Source: a virus
Lineage: Duplodnaviria > Heunggongvirae > Uroviricota > Caudoviricetes
Strand: one strand, 5' to 3'
IMG/VR virus record: IMGVR_UViG_2529292829_000008
DNA: 25,283 nt
In this document: one piece after another, positions 3,720 through 21,453 of the stretch
How the letters are laid out: each line of letters begins with the position of its first letter
Position numbering within the stretch: position 1 is the first letter of the stretch
Position numbers and translations under genes: made by a program
The notes under the pieces: generated by a model
What the model was told of the DNA's origin: nothing
The model's input: only the letters and a program-made list of their open reading frames with translations
Database searches by the model: none

Positions 3720-3946
3720 TGGCTGATGCAATGGATCTCGTCCAGCAGCGAGTTGAAGAAGAACGCCAACGTCATATCCGTGCTGCCCGTGCCAAAACGC
3801 CGGGCGTGTCCCGCGTGCTTTGCGTTGAGTGTGAAGCGCCAATTCCGCCAGCACGCCGTCGTGCCATTCCGGGTGTGCAGCTTTGCATTACCTGTCAGGA
3901 AATCGCAGAGCTGAAAGGCAAACATTACAACGGAGGTGCTGTATGA
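3719..3946 (+). CDS. TraR/DksA-family C4 zinc-finger protein
   Basis: 75 aa with C-x2-C-x19-C-x2-C (CVECEAPIPPARRRAIPGVQLCITCQ), the spacing pattern of phage/plasmid TraR-like DksA zinc fingers rather than Ogr (C-x2-C-x22-C-x4-C). Confidence 0.65.
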   Translation: MADAMDLVQQRVEEERQRHIRAARAKTPGVSRVLCVECEAPIPPARRRAIPGVQLCITCQEIAELKGKHYNGGAV

Positions 3947-4800
3947 GCACCATCCTGAAATGGGCGGGAAATAAACCCGCCATAATGTCCGAACTGAAAA
4001 AGCATCTTCCTGCTGGCCCGCGACTGGTTGAACCTTTCGCGGGTTCCTGTGCTGTGATGATGGAGACGGATTACCCCAGCTATCTTGTTGCGGATATTAA
4101 TCCTGATTTAATCAACCTCTATAAAAAGGTTGCTGCTGATTGTGAGGCGTTTATATCTCGTGCCAGAGCTTTATTTGAGGAAGCAAACAGGGAGGTGGCT
4201 TATTACAACATAAGGCAGGAGTTTAATTACTCCACTGAAATTACTGATTTCATGAAAGCGGTATATTTTCTGTATCTCAATCGTCATGGTTACCGTGGGT
4301 TATGTCGCTATAACAAGAGCGGGTATTTCAACATTCCCTACGGTAATTATAAAAATCCGTATTTCCCTGAAAAAGAAATTCGCGCATTTGCAGAGAAAGC
4401 CCAGCGAGCAACGTTTATCTGCGCCAGCTTTGATGAAACGCTGGCGATGCTGCAGGGGGGGGATGTGGTGTATTGCGATCCGCCTTATGACGGTACGTTT
4501 TCCGGTTATCACACTGACGGCTTCACTGAAGATGACCAGTATCACCTGGCATCCGTTCTTGAACATCGGTCATCAGAAGGACATCCCGTCATTGTTTCTA
4601 ACAGTGACACATCCCTGATCCGTTCGCTGTATCGCAATTTTACTCACCACTACATCAAGGCAAAACGCAGCATCGGTGTGGCAGCTGGTGATAGTAAATC
4701 TGCAACAGAAATCATTGCTGTTTCCGGGGCGCGCTGCTGGGTGGGATTTGATCCTTCGCGTGGCGTAGATAGTTCTGCTGTGTACGAGGTGCGTGTATGA
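3943..4800 (+). CDS. dam: DNA adenine methyltransferase, Dam-like (D12 class N6-A MTase)
   Basis: From ATG 3943 (GGAGG SD): KWAGNK near the N-terminus, FAGSCAV (motif I-like), [15 protein letters not shown], and catalytic DPPY ([10 protein letters not shown]); near-colinear with E. coli Dam as I recall it. Confidence 0.88.
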
Positions 4801-7363: not shown

Positions 7364-7552
7364 ATGCAGGACTATTTTTTGGAGTCTTTGAAGCTTCAGC
7401 GCATTGATTTTTTTCTTAAGCTTGTAGCGGCTAGTGAGTGTAGTGATGAAGAGAAGGGGCTGGCTCTGCAGTGGGTTTCTGAATTGACTGATGAACTTAT
7501 GGCAAAAATCAGAAGCCACGAATACAACCGCTCAATGGATATCATCAGCTGA
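7364..7552 (+). CDS. Small hypothetical protein, first gene of the LexA-boxed operon (possible Tum-like antirepressor component)
   Basis: 62-aa ORF with strong AGGAGGA SD; immediately downstream of the LexA box and upstream of the DinI-like gene. Confidence 0.4.
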   Translation: MQDYFLESLKLQRIDFFLKLVAASECSDEEKGLALQWVSELTDELMAKIRSHEYNRSMDIIS

Positions 7553-7562
7553 GGTGACTTTT

Positions 7563-7796
7563 ATGCGCATTGAAATAATGATCGATAAAGAGCAGAAGAT
7601 TAGCCAGTCTACCCTGGACGCCCTTGAATCCGAGCTTTACCGCAATCTGCGCCCCCTGTATCCCAAAACGGTAATTCGCATTCGCAAAGGTAGTTCTAAC
7701 GGTGTGGAACTAACCGGACTGCAACTGGATGAAGAAAGAAAACAAGTGATGAAAATTATGCAGAAGGTGTGGGAGGACGACAGCTGGCTGCATTAA
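7563..7796 (+). CDS. dinI: DinI-family protein
   Basis: From ATG 7563 (GAGGTGA SD): MRIEIMIDKEQKISQSTLDALESELYRNLRPLYP...VMKIMQKVWEDDSWLH, resembling E. coli DinI (MRIEVTIAK...ILQETWE...) in length and motifs. Confidence 0.7.
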   Translation: MRIEIMIDKEQKISQSTLDALESELYRNLRPLYPKTVIRIRKGSSNGVELTGLQLDEERKQVMKIMQKVWEDDSWLH

Positions 7797-8799: not shown

Positions 8800-10497
8800 A
8801 TGCATAGAATTGTTAAAGCTCATCTTGATAACTTCGTGAAAAGTCACGGTATTGAAAATCATCAAGAGGACACGCAGTTCGAGCTATTTTGTAATAAAGC
8901 TTTGCTGTCTTCTCGTATAAGTATGGATTATGAAATTGACGATGTAACAACCGGGGCTGGTGATGATGGCATGGATGGTGTTGCCATCATAATTGATGAA
9001 GAATTGTGTATATCTTCTGAAGATGCTACTTCAATATTTTCCTCATTACGTAAAAATCATGATGTTGATATTGTTTTCATTCAATCAAAGCGTAGTGAGT
9101 CTTTTGATTTAGGTGATTTTTTAAAGTTTAAAGCTTCCGTTTTTAGATTTATAGAGGATTCTCCTTACTTATGTGTGGATGAAATTCAAAAAAATGCAAG
9201 GGAAGTTTTTGATGTCATAATAAAAAATGTACCTAAGATAAGAGGTGGGCGACCAACTTTTACTGCTAAATATGTTGCAACTGGTTTATATAAAAAACCT
9301 AAAGAGTTAGAGAATGCTCGGAAGTTATTTGCAAAAGAAATTGACGAGTTGGGGTATTTCTGTAATGTTAGCGTTGAGTTTGTTGATCGTGATGAATTAA
9401 CACGTACTTGGATTGATACTTATTCAGTTGTCAATGCTGAATTGCCATTATTTAGTAATGCACCACTTCCCAAAATTAATGGTATAGAAGAAGCTTATCT
9501 TGCTGTCGTTAAAGCAAAGGATTTTGTTGGTAATTTATTGATGACGGACGAGGGGTCTCTCCGTAATCATGTTTTTGTTGAGAACGTCAGGGCGTTCTTG
9601 GGAATTGATAATCCTGTTAACGCATCGATTGCTGAGACAATTAAAAATAAAGATGCCGCTTCACGATTTCCTGTTTTAAATAATGGAATAACAATTGTTA
9701 GTCCGGATGTAAAACTTCAAGGGAGTATTTTACATCTAGAAAATTTTCAGATAGTTAATGGCTGTCAGACATCAAATGTGCTTTACGAATGCCGCGATTC
9801 CTTAGATGATACGATGATGGTTAACTTGAAAGTCGTAGAGACATTAAACGAAGATGTTTTTTCAGAATTGGTTCGAGCGACTAACAGTCAGACTAAAGTT
9901 GATGAGACTCAGTTCTATTCTCTTCGTCCAATAATAAAGAAAGTAGAAGCGTACTTTGATACTTATGAAGGGCAGGATGGTCGTTTATATTTAGAAAGAC
10001 GTGAAAGACAATTTATCGGTAGAGATATACCTGCAGTTAGAGTATTTTCAGTTCATATGGCAGCTAAATGTGTAGCAGCTATGTTCTTCCGTCGGCCAGA
10101 TCTTTCATATAGATACCCTAAAAAAATGTATGAATTGTTGGCTGAGAAAATATTTTCTAATGATACCAAGGAGATTGTATTTTATTCAGCATGTTTAACA
10201 TTATATAGATTACACTTACTTACTTCTAATGCTGATATTCCACAAAATATCAGGAAGTACAAATGGCATTTAATGGCGGTAGTTGGTGCTTTAATTGCCG
10301 GAAAGGATGTGCCTAATTTTGGATCTAAGAAAATGGATGCGTATTGTAATAAAATCATCACTGAAATGACAAAGCATGGTGATAAAATAAAAGCTACTTT
10401 CCAGAAGGCTGTTGATATTGTTTTGTCAATTGATGATATCACTGATGATAGAATGAAAAGGCAAGCTATTTTAGAGGAAATGCTTGCCAAGATTTAA
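8800..10497 (+). CDS. Low-GC cargo protein, candidate AIPR-like abortive-infection / defence protein
   Basis: 565-aa ORF, much more AT-rich than the backbone; sits between cos and the portal gene; contains ...FPVLNNGITIVSPDV...ENFQIVNGCQTSNVLYE... (DNA about 9751-9774), which I recall as resembling the conserved NGxQT core of the AIPR family. ORF call is solid; family assignment is tentative. Confidence 0.55.
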   Translation: MHRIVKAHLDNFVKSHGIENHQEDTQFELFCNKALLSSRISMDYEIDDVTTGAGDDGMDGVAIIIDEELCISSEDATSIFSSLRKNHDVDIVFIQSKRSESFDLGDFLKFKASVFRFIEDSPYLCVDEIQKNAREVFDVIIKNVPKIRGGRPTFTAKYVATGLYKKPKELENARKLFAKEIDELGYFCNVSVEFVDRDELTRTWIDTYSVVNAELPLFSNAPLPKINGIEEAYLAVVKAKDFVGNLLMTDEGSLRNHVFVENVRAFLGIDNPVNASIAETIKNKDAASRFPVLNNGITIVSPDVKLQGSILHLENFQIVNGCQTSNVLYECRDSLDDTMMVNLKVVETLNEDVFSELVRATNSQTKVDETQFYSLRPIIKKVEAYFDTYEGQDGRLYLERRERQFIGRDIPAVRVFSVHMAAKCVAAMFFRRPDLSYRYPKKMYELLAEKIFSNDTKEIVFYSACLTLYRLHLLTSNADIPQNIRKYKWHLMAVVGALIAGKDVPNFGSKKMDAYCNKIITEMTKHGDKIKATFQKAVDIVLSIDDITDDRMKRQAILEEMLAKI

Positions 10498-11619: not shown

Positions 11620-13385
11620 TAAAAAATCTCCACAATATTGCTGGTATTGGCGGATTCGCCCTGCAGCGGTTCGTTAAACAATGCGTGCATCGTTGCCCAG
11701 GCCAGATCGGCATGGCTGGCTTCTTCGCTGCGGCTGGCTTCATAGGTCGGGCGGTTGCCGCTAGCGGTGGTGGCCCGACGGATTGCCATAAAGGACTGCG
11801 CTATGTCGGTGTGCCCGGCGTCAAACTCCAGGCGGCGGTGGCTAATAATGTCGTAGGCCTTGAGTACCAGGGCGTTTTTAACGTTGGGATTGTAGACAAA
11901 CTCCCGGACGGCAGGAAAGAACGCTTTCACGTTCTCGTAAACCCCGTGGCCGACGCCAGTTGAGTCGATGCCGATGTATGTCACGTTGTACTGTTCGGTC
12001 AGTTTTTTGATGGCGTCAGCCTGGGCGCGGAAGTCCATCCCGCGCCACTGGTGACGTTCAAGAATGCGAAACTTGCCGCCCGGCACGGCTGGCGGTGCCA
12101 CCACCACGCATCCAGCGCTGTCGCCGTTTTGTGTACCTTTTGCCGGGTCATAACCGATCCACACTTCGCGCCAGCCAAACGGGCGTAGCGCCAGTGCATG
12201 AAAGTCGGTCCAGACTTCCCAGCTGTCCACCATGCACGCCTGCAGCTCGCTGAGCGGGAAGACGGACGCGAGATCGTCCACGAACTCACACATCAGCAGG
12301 TTCTGGTATTCGTCCGGGCTGTACTCCATGCGCAACTGGTCGAGATCGAACAGGTTACATCCGCCGCGCACCGCATCTTCCACGGTGACTATCTGGCGGT
12401 ATTGCCCGTCTGCGCACAGCAGGCCGGGGGCCAGATTGTTGTGGGACAGGTCGATGTCCACCTTATCGGCTTTGTTGCGCCCACGGTTGAACAGCGCACC
12501 GGACCAGAACGGATAAGCACTGTGGGTCAGGCTGGATGGTGTGGAAAAATAGGTCTGTCGCCATTTCTTGTGAATAGCCATACCGGAAGCTACTTTGCGC
12601 AGCTCCTGGAATTTCGGTATCCAGAAATATTCATCCAGATACAGGTTGCCGTGGTAACTCTGGGCAGTGCGGGCATTGGTGCCGAGGAAGTAAAGCGTGG
12701 CCCCGTTAGGAAGCACCATCGGATCGCCTTTCAGCTCCACCTCCACTTCTTTGGCGAAGTCGATGATGTACTGCTTAAAGACGTGGGCCTGAGCCTTGCT
12801 GGCGGAAAGGAAAATCTGGTTACGCCCGGTTAGCAGGGCGTCAATCAGGGCTTCACGGGCAAAATAGAAGGTCGCGCCGATCTGGCGTGACTTCAGCAGG
12901 TTGCGGATGCGGTTGGTTTTTCCGGCTTCCCACCAGTGGCGCTGGTAGTTGAACATGGAGGAATGGAAGATTTCTTCCAGCTTCTCAATCTGTTCATCGG
13001 TGAAAACGTTCTTTTCCGGCTGACGGCGCGGGCCTTTGTTGCGGTTGGCGACGTTAGGGTTTAAGTCGGCTTCGTTGCCGCCATTGTTAAACTTGCCGAT
13101 GCGCGCGTGGCGCTCCGACTGGCGCGCCAGCAGGTCAATCTCTTTGAAATCTTTCCCTTCTTTGTGCTCCTTCATAATGAGCTGGCAGTAGCGGGCGGCG
13201 GTGGTGAGCTGCATCTGATCCAGCGGCCCATAGTCACCCCACTTGTCGCGTTTCTTCCAGCTGTGAACGGTTGCAACTTTCTCGCCCAGCATTTCAGCAA
13301 TGCGGGCTACGCGATATCCCTGAAAGTACAGCAGCATGGCCTGCCGACGGGGATCGAGATCTGCGGGTGTCAGTGTGGTGTTCAT
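11619..13385 (-). CDS. P: Terminase large (ATPase) subunit (P2 gpP-like)
   Basis: 588-aa ORF directly upstream of and overlapping the portal gene start; length and position match P2 gpP. Confidence 0.9.
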   Translation of the reverse strand: MNTTLTPADLDPRRQAMLLYFQGYRVARIAEMLGEKVATVHSWKKRDKWGDYGPLDQMQLTTAARYCQLIMKEHKEGKDFKEIDLLARQSERHARIGKFNNGGNEADLNPNVANRNKGPRRQPEKNVFTDEQIEKLEEIFHSSMFNYQRHWWEAGKTNRIRNLLKSRQIGATFYFAREALIDALLTGRNQIFLSASKAQAHVFKQYIIDFAKEVEVELKGDPMVLPNGATLYFLGTNARTAQSYHGNLYLDEYFWIPKFQELRKVASGMAIHKKWRQTYFSTPSSLTHSAYPFWSGALFNRGRNKADKVDIDLSHNNLAPGLLCADGQYRQIVTVEDAVRGGCNLFDLDQLRMEYSPDEYQNLLMCEFVDDLASVFPLSELQACMVDSWEVWTDFHALALRPFGWREVWIGYDPAKGTQNGDSAGCVVVAPPAVPGGKFRILERHQWRGMDFRAQADAIKKLTEQYNVTYIGIDSTGVGHGVYENVKAFFPAVREFVYNPNVKNALVLKAYDIISHRRLEFDAGHTDIAQSFMAIRRATTASGNRPTYEASRSEEASHADLAWATMHALFNEPLQGESANTSNIVEIF

Positions 13386-13431
13386 GGCACAAACCTACAG
13401 CCTTGAATGAAGGCTTTCCCCGCCTGCGGTT

Positions 13432-13449
13432 TGTGTGGTTGTCGGTACA
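13432..13449. promoter_or_regulatory. Candidate Ogr/B-dependent late promoter element (TGT-N12-ACA) in the P/O divergent region
   Basis: TGTGTGGTTGTCGGTACA; its centre is about 55 bp upstream of a plausible start site roughly 30 nt before the O ATG (13528), the geometry of P2 late promoters. Confidence 0.5.
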
Positions 13450-18502: not shown

Positions 18503-18896
18503 AGCAGTGCCTTATGTCCGCAATAACCCGGACAAACTGCATCTGTTTGTGGATAACGGTTCGCTGGTTGCCACCGGGGCCAGCTCCATGTCATGGGAGT
18601 ACCGTTATACCCTCAACGTGGTGATTGAGGATTTCAGCGGCGACCAGAATCTGCTGATGGCTCCCGTGTTGCTGTGGCTCAGAGAGAACCAGCCGGACGC
18701 CATCAACAACCCGGAGCTGCGCGAAAAACTGTTCACCTTTGAAGTGGATATTCTGCGCAATGACGTGTGTGATATCAGCCTGAATCTGCAGCTGACAGAG
18801 CGCGTACTGGTCAGCACTGACGGCACTGTGTCCAGTGTTGAAGCTGTAGCGGAACCCGATGAACCTGAAGAAATGTGGACGGTGAAACGTGGATGA
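18465..18896 (+). CDS. R: Tail completion protein R (P2 gpR-like)
   Basis: ORF 18444..18896; alignment with P2 gpR (...SLRRALTDAV...FVDNGS...YTLNV...PVLAWLRENQPD...) suggests the GTG at 18465 after AGGAGCG; the ATG at 18444 is the alternative start. Confidence 0.8.
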   Translation: MNKPQSLRHALNKAVPYVRNNPDKLHLFVDNGSLVATGASSMSWEYRYTLNVVIEDFSGDQNLLMAPVLLWLRENQPDAINNPELREKLFTFEVDILRNDVCDISLNLQLTERVLVSTDGTVSSVEAVAEPDEPEEMWTVKRG

Positions 18897-19338
18897 ACTG
18901 CAGAAGGTGGACGACTGGCTGAGTGCCTTGCTGGCGAATCTGGAGCCAGCCGCAAGAAGCCGCATGATGCGCCAGCTGGCGCAGGAACTGCGCCGGACAC
19001 AGCAGCAGAATATCAGGATGCAGCGCAACCCTGACGGCAGCAGCTATGAACCGCGACGGGTAACAGCACGCAGTAAAAAAGGCCGTATCAAACGTCAGAT
19101 GTTTGCAAAGCTGCGCACCACAAAATACCTGAAAACTGCCGCCAGCGCGGATTCTGCCAGCGTACAGTTTGAAGGTAAGGTACAGCGCATTGCCCGCGTT
19201 CACCATTACGGCCTGCGTGATCGCGTCAGTCGAAAAGGACCGGAGGTCCGCTATGCAGAGCGCCGCTTGCTGGGTTATAGTAATAATAGTTATCTAATCG
19301 TTAGTGATTTACTAATGAAATGGCTAACGCATCGTTAG
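18889..19338 (+). CDS. S: Tail completion / virion morphogenesis protein S (P2 gpS-like), C-terminus altered at the cargo junction
   Basis: 149-aa ORF (GTG start overlapping the R stop) with ...RVHHYGLRDRVSRKGPEVRYAERRLLG...; the last ~20 codons are AT-rich, consistent with replacement by the adjacent insertion. Confidence 0.8.
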   Translation: MDELQKVDDWLSALLANLEPAARSRMMRQLAQELRRTQQQNIRMQRNPDGSSYEPRRVTARSKKGRIKRQMFAKLRTTKYLKTAASADSASVQFEGKVQRIARVHHYGLRDRVSRKGPEVRYAERRLLGYSNNSYLIVSDLLMKWLTHR

Positions 19339-19349
19339 CCATTACGAGA

Positions 19350-20795
19350 TTAATGAGTTTTAAGTGCCTCTGTTAAAGATTTTCGATGATGTTCCCAAAA
19401 GGCAAAATCATTTACGTTTGAACTAAACCTCAAATGCTCTTCAGAATATATTGTTTCACGGTGATCGCATCCAAGAAGACATAGAATTAATCTGGTTAGA
19501 TATATTGTTAAGTGTTCACAAGCAACTGCAATGTTTATCAAGTTGTCACTTGGTATAATTACACCATGTATAATTATATTTCTGATTTCAGAAAGTCCTA
19601 GCTTACCAGATTCATTAAATAATGGCCATAAGTCATGAGTATGGATTAAATGTTCTTTAAGAAATTCTTGTGTGGCATCTTTTAATGATATTCTATTCAG
19701 TTCTCCTAGTTTGCTTTTTATTTTTCCTCTAGTTGTTGAATCTTTGATAACGTCCTTGGTGATGACTCTTTCAATTGTTTGTCTTAATGATTTAAACTCG
19801 CTTTCACATAGAATGAAGGTCGTATTGTTTTTTTCTTTATGAGTTAAGATAATAGATTCAAAAGATTGGAAAAGTGAAAGGTATCGAGACTCAAGATATT
19901 GGTTTGATGCATTGAGGACATTAATGGCTAATCGGATGTTCTGTCTGTAATGGGATGACAAATATGTGTGAAACATATTTTCAATATTTTCTTTGGCTTG
20001 TGATGGCATCATTAAGTGTTCTTTTTTGGTATCCTTAATAGGATTTTTTATCCTACAGCGAAAAACTGTATATACACCATCATTAGATTTTAGGTTCAAG
20101 TAACGACAAACTACTTTGTTACTATTGATAAATGATAAGATATCATTAAATGCGTCAATTTTGTCAATGTAGTTGTTTCTTACATCATCAATGGTTAAAT
20201 TAGAATTGTTGGGCTTTATTTTTAGGATTTGTTTTGTGCTGATTTCAAATTTTTCATTGCGTTCTAGTTTTAATTCGATATCTAATTTTATATCTTCGTC
20301 ATTGTTAAGTTTAACAATAATAGACTCTGGCTTTGTAAGAGTGATGTTACCATTCGAAGATAAATTGTACTGAATGTTAGGGGAAAGTAGTTGATGGTCA
20401 CTGTTGTAGAATGTTATTTCCGTATCAGGCGTATTATGTGCTTTATTATTTATAATGACTTCATTGGGAATGATGTTAAATGTATAGTATTGAGTTTTTC
20501 CTGAGTGACGGTCGACGATGTTTTCTATTCTACAATCGATTAGTTTTATCACTGAGCGAATATCACCATTTACATAATGAGTGCAAAATTCAATGTCTAA
20601 ATTATTTTTTCCATAAAGCTTGATGGTTTTTTTACTATAGGTCTTTATCTGAATCCTATCCCAGCTTTCTTTATTGTTGACAGTAACATTGCAAGTCATT
20701 TTGATACTGTTTTCTGTTTTTATATTATCGTCATTAATAGTAATTGGGTTGTGGTCATAAGAAAAAGTAACTTTAATTGATTCATACGTGTTCAC
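19350..20795 (-). CDS. Low-GC cargo protein with C-terminal HEPN-like R-N-x3-H motif (candidate abortive-infection RNase)
   Basis: 481-aa ORF, antisense to the flanking tail genes; GTG start with perfect AAGGAG SD; very AT-rich; N/K/I-rich N-terminal two-thirds; C-terminal region contains SEIRNIIIHG (DNA 19566-19583). ORF call is solid; function is a hypothesis. Confidence 0.6.
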   Translation of the reverse strand: MNTYESIKVTFSYDHNPITINDDNIKTENSIKMTCNVTVNNKESWDRIQIKTYSKKTIKLYGKNNLDIEFCTHYVNGDIRSVIKLIDCRIENIVDRHSGKTQYYTFNIIPNEVIINNKAHNTPDTEITFYNSDHQLLSPNIQYNLSSNGNITLTKPESIIVKLNNDEDIKLDIELKLERNEKFEISTKQILKIKPNNSNLTIDDVRNNYIDKIDAFNDILSFINSNKVVCRYLNLKSNDGVYTVFRCRIKNPIKDTKKEHLMMPSQAKENIENMFHTYLSSHYRQNIRLAINVLNASNQYLESRYLSLFQSFESIILTHKEKNNTTFILCESEFKSLRQTIERVITKDVIKDSTTRGKIKSKLGELNRISLKDATQEFLKEHLIHTHDLWPLFNESGKLGLSEIRNIIIHGVIIPSDNLINIAVACEHLTIYLTRLILCLLGCDHRETIYSEEHLRFSSNVNDFAFWEHHRKSLTEALKTH

Positions 20796-20810
20796 TGATG
20801 TTTATCTCCT

Positions 20811-20828
20811 TGTGTGGTAAGCGACACA
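20811..20828. promoter_or_regulatory. Candidate Ogr/B-dependent late promoter element (TGT-N12-ACA) upstream of V
   Basis: TGTGTGGTAAGCGACACA, sharing the TGTGTGGT start with the dyad at 13432; it is unusually close to the V ATG (20875) for a -55 centre and overlaps the SD of the divergent cargo gene. Confidence 0.4.
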
Positions 20829-20874
20829 ATATTATCAAATTTTGAATTAAGAAAAAGGCTGCCATAGTTGCCTT

Positions 20875-21453
20875 ATGAACGCACAACTGACCGAAATCAT
20901 GCGCCTTATCACCAACCTGATCCGCACAGGGGTAGTTACCGAAGTGGACAGGGAAAACTGGCTTTGCCGGGTGAAAACGGGCGAGCTTGAAACCAACTGG
21001 ATTAACTGGCTGACGCTGCGTGCCGGGAATGCCCGCACATGGTGGCGACCATCGGAAGGTGAGCAGGTGGTGCTGCTGAGTCTGGGCGGAAATCTGGAAA
21101 CCGCCTTTGCGCTGCCCGCTGTCTATTCGAATCAGTTCGCACCACCGTCGACGTCGGCGGACGCCTGCGTGACAGAACATCCTGACGGTGGCTGGTTTGA
21201 ATACGAACCCGCCACCGGGCGCTGGTATGTCAGGGGCATCAAATCAATGGTCATTGAGGCCGCTGACAACATCACCATGAAAACCAGTGAGTTTGTACTG
21301 GAGGCTGACCGCACGTGCATTAACAGCGAAGTGGTGATCAATGGTGGCGTTACCCAGGGCGGCGGAGCGATGAGTTCTAACGGGATTGTGGTTGATGCGC
21401 ATCAGCATACTGGCGTCCTGAAAGGCGGCGATACAACCGGAGGCCCGGTATGA
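20875..21453 (+). CDS. V: Baseplate spike / assembly protein V (P2 gpV-like)
   Basis: 192 aa; MNAQLTEIMRLITNLIRTGVVTEVD...WLTLRAGNARTWWRPSEGEQVVLLSLGG...SSNGIVVDAHQHTG... is colinear with P2 gpV. Confidence 0.9.
   Translation: MNAQLTEIMRLITNLIRTGVVTEVDRENWLCRVKTGELETNWINWLTLRAGNARTWWRPSEGEQVVLLSLGGNLETAFALPAVYSNQFAPPSTSADACVTEHPDGGWFEYEPATGRWYVRGIKSMVIEAADNITMKTSEFVLEADRTCINSEVVINGGVTQGGGAMSSNGIVVDAHQHTGVLKGGDTTGGPV

Follow-up and report, generated by a model that had tools for sequence, protein, structure and literature searches.

ApeA is a single-gene HEPN defence system that cuts tRNA anticodon loops or phage RNA. The protein, of ∼585 aa, is predominantly α-helical and contains a catenin-like N-terminal domain as well as a PafA-like Mid domain, and it forms decameric or dodecameric doughnuts that are activated via a pocket between the N-terminal and HEPN domains (bioRxiv 10.64898/2026.01.26.701840, 10.64898/2026.03.20.713152). 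A second arrangement, in which a mostly-β N-terminal region of ∼300 aa (ApeA-NTD1) is fused to a HEPN(Apea) domain, is a purely computational class from the catalogue of Anantharaman et al. 2013 (PMC3710099). In addition, a defence hotspot among the tail genes of P2 has been reported (PMC13586616). Here, we analysed IMG/VR record IMGVR_UViG_2529292829_000008, a stretch of 25,283 nucleotides from a tailed phage (hereafter, the window), focusing on a 481-aa cargo gene that lies antisense between the tail genes S and V. Based on the analyses described below, this gene is probably a moron of a P2-like prophage that acts as a single-gene anti-phage defence of the abortive-infection or superinfection-exclusion type, in which a HEPN effector is combined with a variable Hcp-like sensor and/or oligomerisation module.

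The coding sequence (CDS) of the cargo gene spans 19350-20795 on the minus strand, from a GTG start codon at 20795-20793 to a TAA stop codon at 19350-19352, and an AAGGAG Shine-Dalgarno sequence (20806-20811, minus strand) is located 10 nt upstream of the GTG. The GC content of the open reading frame (ORF) is 0.306, compared with 0.540 for S and 0.570 for V. Thus, the coordinates, the base composition and the flanking genes identified by Pfam confirm the original prediction of an AT-rich antisense ORF with its own AAGGAG between S and V. An open frame of 1.45 kb in DNA of 31% GC is unlikely to have arisen by chance. We note that RefSeq assigns an equal 481-aa extent to a 97.8%-identical copy in E. 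coli 23CRST035, labelled as a hypothetical protein, and that 18 public E. coli contigs encode the identical protein, always labelled as hypothetical. The gaps between the cargo stop codon and S (11 nt) and between the cargo start codon and V (79 nt) are too short for a partner gene, and therefore we consider the cargo a single-gene system; in agreement with this, a reading of the ORFs in the window revealed no second plausible ORF in the cassette. The whole window corresponds to a P2-like prophage, in which Pfam identified an integrase, CI, a CII-like regulator, a Dam methylase, GPA, DinI, portal, terminase, capsid and lysis proteins, and tail proteins. Using tblastn of the cargo against 50,697 deposited phage genomes, we obtained no matches; the gene is known from prophages and IMG/VR contigs, without a match in deposited phage records.

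To define the family to which the cargo protein belongs, we used an exhaustive HMMER search, which identified 454 cluster representatives (clustered at 50% identity) at E ≤ 1e-3 and 261 at E ≤ 1e-10. Almost all of those that are full length comprise ∼470-500 aa. A word-indexed protein search returned only four to five clusters, and the family became visible only in the exhaustive search. Conservation was analysed by aligning 73 homologs, with identities of 17-91%. In this alignment, E313, W390, L401, R405 and H410 are invariant, while at least 90% of the sequences share N406, G411, K362, L366, N367, R368 and P391, along with a small number of further residues. R405, N406 and H410 are part of the sequence SEIRNIIIHG (aa 402-411) and form the predicted catalytic R-N-x3-H motif (R405 N406 I I I H410) at 19566-19583 on the minus strand, with the R405 codon at 19581-19583 and the H410 codon at 19566-19568. 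Conservation of the catalytic motif also holds in the subfamilies A2, A3 and A4. The motif is located in an all-α C-terminal domain (∼aa 261-445; 19461-20015, minus strand) with the conserved blocks E302...FQSFES (including E313), KLGELNR (K362-R368), DLWP (including W390), IRNIIIHG, and A425..H428-L429.

Three lines of evidence identify the C-terminal domain as a HEPN domain. First, the conservation centres on the residues of the R-N-x3-H motif, which agrees with the R-x4-6-H catalytic signature of the HEPN superfamily. Second, 25 of the 73 homologs match the Pfam model HEPN_Apea (PF18739; gathering threshold 24.4 bits) at E ≤ 0.01, the best with an E-value of 5.1e-10, and an allele from the S-V junction of Lelliottia matches it with an E-value of 0.009. 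Third, the HEPN core of the structural model superposes on solved HEPN domains, with the HEPN toxins of HepT/MNT toxin-antitoxin systems as the closest solved folds. The structure comparison therefore supports that the C-terminal domain, as modelled, has a HEPN fold with a predicted RNase site formed by R405 and H410. The original prediction had read HEPN from one short motif; the invariance of R405 and H410, the near-invariance of N406 and the 25 HEPN_Apea matches all support this reading, and structure prediction, suggested at the time as a check for a HEPN-like fold, came out in its favour. In searches with phmmer and with profiles against PDB sequences, no matches were obtained even at E ≤ 10.

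The family is catalogued in silico only, without an assigned function, and PADLOC v2 does not detect it. PHROG 22870, which is of unknown function, matches the cargo protein over its full length. None of the 73 homologs matched the ApeA models of PADLOC v2, and weak matches to "Cas13-ApeA" models were the only ones obtained, in 11 of the 73. Literature searches returned no published description or test of the family. The suggestion that it could be undescribed accordingly stands in one respect and not in another: PHROG 22870, the hypothetical label at NCBI and the lack of a PADLOC annotation leave it functionally unannotated, while its architecture fits the ApeA-NTD1 + HEPN(Apea) class from 2013.

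The N-terminal 300 aa had initially been described as lacking a recognisable motif. Instead, residues 1-195 are confidently modelled as a domain with 13 β-strands, and the predicted N-terminal domain (∼aa 1-200; 20196-20795, minus strand) is β-rich with an Hcp/phage tail-tube-like fold. The model of this domain superposes on Hcp and tube proteins; the best fold matches are Hcp proteins of type VI secretion systems (T6SS), and Foldseek matched it to Hcp with an E-value of 6e-5. A fold search in BFVD gave only weak tail-tube matches and no full-length viral homolog. Within the protein, conservation is lowest in the N-terminal domain, with 14-18% identity to the window protein versus 33% in the HEPN domain, i.e., this domain is about half as conserved. 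It is followed by a linker or middle region (∼aa 201-260; 20016-20195, minus strand) with a long helix (residues 202-224), two strands and the nearly invariant residues S221 and R246; in the model, this region together with extra β-structure stands between the Hcp-like part and the HEPN domain. Within the N-terminal domain, ∼aa 140-200 (about 20196-20378) give a borderline match to the Pfam family DUF7239. The N-terminal domain alone scored 26.5 bits, which is above the gathering threshold of 24.6, while the full-length protein scored 24.3 bits, which is below it. We found no mention of DUF7239 in the literature searched, nor did that literature describe the Hcp/tail-tube similarity of the N-terminal domain or the location at the P2 S-V junction.

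The layout of the S-V junction in the window matches that of P2. In the P2 reference annotation, S is followed by the rho-independent terminator of the O-operon, the non-essential orf30 on the minus strand, the activator-binding site of pV, and V. In the window, S (18889-19338, plus strand; tail completion) matches Pfam Phage_tail_S with an E-value of 1e-40, and V (20875-21453, plus strand; baseplate spike) matches Phage_base_V with an E-value of 7e-18, as well as Apex. Based on this matching layout, and as originally proposed, the cargo gene occupies the orf30 slot of P2, where two late operons leave a natural gap between them. Like P2 Orf30, the cargo protein is encoded antisense between the O-operon terminator and the pV activator site; unlike Orf30, its gene is nearly twice as long and the two proteins share no sequence similarity. 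Homology to Orf30 was rejected based on a best BLASTP E-value of 0.78.

To delimit the variable cassette, the window was aligned with an empty site (strain 600468) and with the Salmonella phage SEN8, giving a cassette at ∼19275-20868. Similarity to the empty site stops within the last ∼20 codons of S and restarts ∼6 nt before the ATG of V, and the junction spans 290 bp in empty sites versus 1761 bp in the window. The C-terminal ∼20 codons of S are allele-specific: these codons of an essential tail gene (19275-19338) vary among the window, the empty site and SEN8 and become alike again only at a (K/Q/E)-W-L motif. Immediately after the cargo stop codon, a perfect 11-bp hairpin with a 3-nt loop (AATGGCTAACG / CGTTAGCCATT; 19319-19343) overlaps the S stop codon (19336-19338). 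Because the S stop codon lies within this hairpin of the cassette, the swapped module takes in part of the structural gene S. A 57-nt segment with this hairpin and a small neighbouring hairpin has a minimum free energy of -16.9 kcal/mol, and the hairpin is a candidate for a terminator shared by the O-operon and the cargo gene. A strict terminator scan did not call it because it lacks a clean T-run.

On the other side of the cargo gene, the late promoter pV, from which V-W-J-I-H-G are transcribed, has its Ogr-type activator site in a TGT-N12-ACA box (TGTGTGGTAAGCGACACA; 20811-20828, plus strand). TGT-N12-ACA is the consensus of the Ogr-dependent late promoters PP, PO, PV and PF (PMC3931495). 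The window contains only three such boxes, at 13374-13391 and 13432-13449 in the divergent P/O promoter region and at 20811-20828, and all three fall at the expected P2 late promoters (PP/PO and PV). The distance from the centre of the pV box to the V ATG is exactly 55 nt in 14 of 16 sequences (the window and 13 of 15 related loci), whatever the cargo, even though the sequence in between is not conserved. This fixed distance implies a leaderless V mRNA, as annotated for P2, in which V transcription starts at the first base of V. The first base of the AAGGAG, as read from the sequence, is the last base of the pV dyad, and an [A]AGGA box adjoining the dyad is also present ahead of divergent cargo alleles. 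Between the pV box and the start of V, there is an AT-rich, allele-specific spacer (20829-20874, minus strand) that is a candidate site for the divergent promoter of the cargo gene; by its position between dyad and V, it would be the sole place for this promoter, and the extended -10 element TGaTAATAT at 20829-20837 is one possible example.

The same slot is used by a defence gene that has been validated. In E. coli EC416, we found the Ec3ApeA gene (L009, NZ_AP027404, 3601-5354) antisense between V and S of a P2-like prophage, and the cloned Ec3ApeA fragment starts with the reverse complement of the gpV start (ApeA preprint, supplementary table). Thus, a validated defence gene occupies a slot identical to that of the cargo gene. 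We note that a disruption of the reading frame divides the Ec3ApeA gene in EC416 into two CDS of 588 and 1119 nt and that the word "prophage" is absent from the ApeA preprint text. Like ApeA, the cargo protein is encoded by a single gene and has a C-terminal HEPN domain, an R-N-x3-H-(S)G motif and an upstream E-S-L helix motif; with Ec3ApeA, it shares the S-V slot and the antisense orientation, and both genes are AT-rich morons. Unlike ApeA, it has 481 aa (∼100 residues fewer) and a predicted β-rich, Hcp-like N-terminal domain instead of a helical one. A low-stringency alignment of the family profile (A1) and ApeA is collinear over 181 columns. It pairs the cargo motif with RNNIVH of Ec3ApeA, and the paired blocks are E-x-LL-x-[LF]-[FW]-x-[AS]-[LF]-E-[ST]-L, the invariant W, R-N-x-[LI]-[IV]-H-[SG]-G and the downstream H. 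This alignment is consistent with a distant homology that is limited to the HEPN domains. The arginine equivalent to R405 is essential in Ec1 and Ec2 ApeA (ApeA preprints, bioRxiv).

With the ApeA-NTD1 + HEPN(Apea) class (PMC3710099), the cargo protein shares a mostly-β N-terminal region fused to an Apea-type HEPN domain, and the genomic contexts fit as well. The 91%-identical homolog P0165 (UniProt A0A744JWZ8) is named "ApeA N-terminal domain-containing protein." In the Pfam-A copy used, ApeA_NTD1 matched neither the window protein nor P0001, P0165 (in this case even at E ≤ 10) or any of the 73 homologs, and the N-termini of Ec1, Ec2 and Ec4 ApeA and the C-terminus of Ec3 ApeA matched neither ApeA_NTD1 nor HEPN_Apea. 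Based on these results, the protein set described by the Pfam "Apea" models seems to differ from that of the ApeA defence proteins.

We next consider how frequently the slot is filled and with what. Among 5426 complete E. coli genomes, 843 match the S/V flanks, and one of these 843 carries the cargo gene; many of the others have the empty 290-bp junction. Other S-V cargos were observed in the E. coli genomes H60, H61, H65 and H66, i.e., a DUF6216 family protein (∼1.07-kb span) and an unnamed hypothetical protein (∼1.1 kb), and SEN8 (L002, 2654-3589) carries an antisense FRG-domain gene at its S-V junction. A 91%-identical Salmonella allele of the cargo gene occurs in 555 blocks of the assembly index and is at the S-V junction in all three representative places (26 contigs read). 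Scans of GTDB genomes and IMG/VR identified 22 further loci (Lelliottia, Pantoea and 20 viral contigs), and in all 22 of these phage or prophage loci, the homolog is antisense between V and S. Across these loci, identity to the window ranges from 27 to 100% for the cargo, 58 to 100% for S and 64 to 100% for V, and among phages with near-equal flanks, cargo alleles share 27%, 30% and 36% identity with the window protein. All phage-borne alleles have a GC content of 31-36% in flanks of 57-62%. Near-equal flanks with such different alleles argue for long residence and fast divergence or, alternatively, allele swapping. The allelic diversification over conserved flanks is an arms-race signature.

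A distant metagenomic subfamily (∼20-24% identical) has no P2 genes nearby. To characterise its surroundings, we analysed 94 neighbouring ORFs at 20 metagenomic loci using Pfam and PADLOC. Matches included PglX (4-5 ORFs, E = 0), BrxC and type IIG restriction-modification enzymes; Eco57I (5), N6_Mtase (4), GmrSD (2), HSDR_N and ParE/Phd; and AAA_21 (AbiEii-like ATPase), Abi_2 and a reverse transcriptase. Thus, the neighbourhoods of the distant homologs have a defence-island signature. The distant homologs (loci L030-L071) are co-directional with large neighbours, several of these loci have PglX-type methyltransferases, and at L033, the homolog is downstream of an ORF matching the C-terminus of BrxC. 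These distant members appear to be accessory genes within BREX (bacteriophage exclusion) operons. The second check suggested originally, namely whether homologs occur in phage or defence contexts, was therefore also answered in favour, by the loci at S-V junctions and by the BREX and restriction-modification neighbourhoods. No T6SS genes or adjacent immunity genes were found in any locus examined.

These results favour a defence function of the cargo gene, and by analogy with described HEPN systems, we suggest the following mechanism. The protein would be made in the lysogen from its own divergent promoter. The C-terminal HEPN domains would dimerise to form a composite RNase site from R405 and H410, which would be held inactive, while the fast-evolving Hcp/tail-tube-like N-terminal domain may function as an infection sensor, an oligomerisation scaffold, or both. 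Infection by a competing phage would trigger RNA cleavage, and phage propagation would halt. By comparison with ApeA, PrrC and RloC, the most likely RNA targets would be the anticodon loops of tRNAs or some other essential RNA.

Several observations weigh against this reading. HEPN domains are also found in toxin-antitoxin toxins and in secreted toxins, and the Hcp-like fold recalls the "evolved Hcp" effectors of T6SS. The window protein and its isolated C-terminus do not match Pfam HEPN_Apea at E ≤ 10, and their membership is transitive, through clear homologs. Likewise, the PADLOC (2023) and NCBIfam profiles did not match the window protein. No match at E ≤ 10 was obtained for the A1 family profile against the ApeA PDB chains in the set searched (9hxj, 9hxi, 9hxn and 9hxm), and hhalign of A1 against an alignment of 34 ApeA proteins of the Ec3 clade gave probabilities of 6.6% at full length and 12.8% for the C-termini only. 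The neighbourhood census is a small sample and has no matched background control. Scans of 19100-21000 for consensus promoters and terminators yielded no hits above background, including no consensus sigma-70 promoter for the cargo gene, and therefore expression in the lysogen is only assumed.

A more specific version of the sensor idea is that the N-terminal domain mimics subunits of the phage tail tube or baseplate hub, which would represent a new sensing logic based either on tail morphogenesis or on an Hcp-like ring scaffold. In the first case, an invading phage with a contractile tail would supply tail-tube, tube-initiator or chaperone proteins that co-assemble with the domain or displace it, which would switch on the HEPN RNase. 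In the second, Hcp-like hexameric rings would hold three HEPN dimers around a central channel and form a convergent ApeA-like doughnut. Because the translation start overlaps the Ogr box of pV and the promoter presumably lies in the pV spacer, Ogr activation during the lytic cycle of the prophage itself could, in addition, silence the cargo gene and spare the resident phage. We regard this version as speculative and unlikely.

Alternatively, the HEPN RNase could be an addiction module or selfish toxin that stabilises the prophage or the cassette by post-segregational killing or growth arrest and has no dedicated anti-phage role. The closest solved folds are those of the HEPN toxins of HepT/MNT systems, ApeA overexpression is toxic even without phage (ApeA preprints, bioRxiv), and ParE/Phd genes are among the neighbours of the distant homologs. 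However, the cassette has no antitoxin or MNT partner and no second ORF, and on this basis, a two-gene HEPN-MNT system was rejected. In contrast to the minimal HepT toxins (PDB 8XDJ, 7AE2 and 5YEP; ∼130 aa), which an adjacent MNT antitoxin neutralises, the cargo protein has no partner gene and ∼260 extra N-terminal residues. Moreover, the neighbours at the chromosomal loci are mostly BREX and restriction-modification genes, the validated defence gene Ec3ApeA is in the identical slot, and a hypervariable N-terminal domain better suits the sensing of a changing target. We therefore consider an addiction function improbable.

A similarly low probability applies to the possibility that the cargo protein is a divergent canonical ApeA that works identically, i.e., by way of a decameric or dodecameric doughnut, a deoxydinucleotide-binding pocket and tRNA anticodon cleavage. 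The slot common to the cargo gene and Ec3ApeA, the collinearity of the conserved blocks at low stringency and the UniProt name of the 91% homolog fit this possibility. Against it are the length of 481 versus ∼585 aa, the β-rich versus predominantly helical N-terminus, the lack of matches to the PADLOC ApeA models or between the A1 profile and the ApeA PDB chains, and the low hhalign probabilities. In addition, the pocket is built from the N-terminal and HEPN domains of ApeA, and that N-terminal domain is not present in the cargo protein. Based on the profile and hhalign results, the different N-terminal architecture and the shorter length, membership in canonical ApeA was rejected.

It is very unlikely that the protein is an offensive or structural factor of the phage that is virion- or tail-borne, or made in lytic growth, and whose RNase acts on the newly infected host in takeover or counter-defence. 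The resemblance of the N-terminal fold to Hcp and tail-tube proteins and the position of the gene inside the tail module, adjoining the pV promoter, would fit such a factor. However, the gene is antisense to both late operons and set apart from them by the O-operon terminator and pV, it is missing from most P2-like prophages, its base composition is foreign, and phage structural genes are missing from the surroundings of its distant homologs, which are in BREX and restriction-modification loci. Unlike Hcp and the tube proteins of contractile tails (PDB 3V4H, 9QPE, 4HKH, 6J0B and 3J9Q), to which its identity is 5-15%, the cargo protein has no T6SS or tube-assembly context and is fused to an RNase domain. 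A structural tail protein was rejected based on the antisense orientation, the rarity of the gene, its foreign GC content and its non-phage homologs. Lastly, Hcp proteins with C-terminal toxin extensions exist in Enterobacteria and T6SS Hcp proteins are the best fold matches of the N-terminal domain, but an inter-bacterial "evolved Hcp" toxin, in which an Hcp-like carrier delivers a C-terminal HEPN toxin by T6SS, is extremely unlikely given that the loci examined lack T6SS and adjacent immunity genes, that the location is constantly in P2-like phages or defence islands, and that further β-structure and the middle region lie between the Hcp-like part and the HEPN domain.

The prophage carries other accessory genes. 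A 565-aa ORF at 8800-10497 (plus strand) has an AIPR domain (abortive infection phage resistance; PF10592; E-value 1.5e-43) and is flanked by the DinI-like gene on one side and by the portal gene Q on the other; in P2-like phages, this cos-proximal site is the classical old/tin defence hotspot. This ORF is probably a second defence cargo of the same prophage. A D12-class Dam methyltransferase gene at 3883-4800 (plus strand) is just upstream of the replication gene A, and the DinI-like gene at 7491-7796 (plus strand) is downstream of A; these two genes possibly have accessory or anti-restriction functions.

Returning to the interpretation of the cargo gene as a single-gene defence moron, what is new is a protein that is ApeA-like in effector and slot and has a different sensor architecture, in a conceptual space that is well explored. 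In practical terms, defence annotation with PADLOC v2 overlooks this gene. If confirmed, a widespread single-gene HEPN defence with 454 cluster representatives would join the catalogue of such systems, and the S-V (orf30) junction of P2-like phages would be a genuine defence slot, at which unrelated N-terminal sensors, i.e., the helical ApeA type and the β-rich Hcp-like type, combine with Apea-type HEPN effectors. The divergent alleles in a conserved phage backbone represent a natural panel for mapping sensor specificity, and a tail-tube-like sensor domain suggests a testable link from tail morphogenesis to RNase activation.

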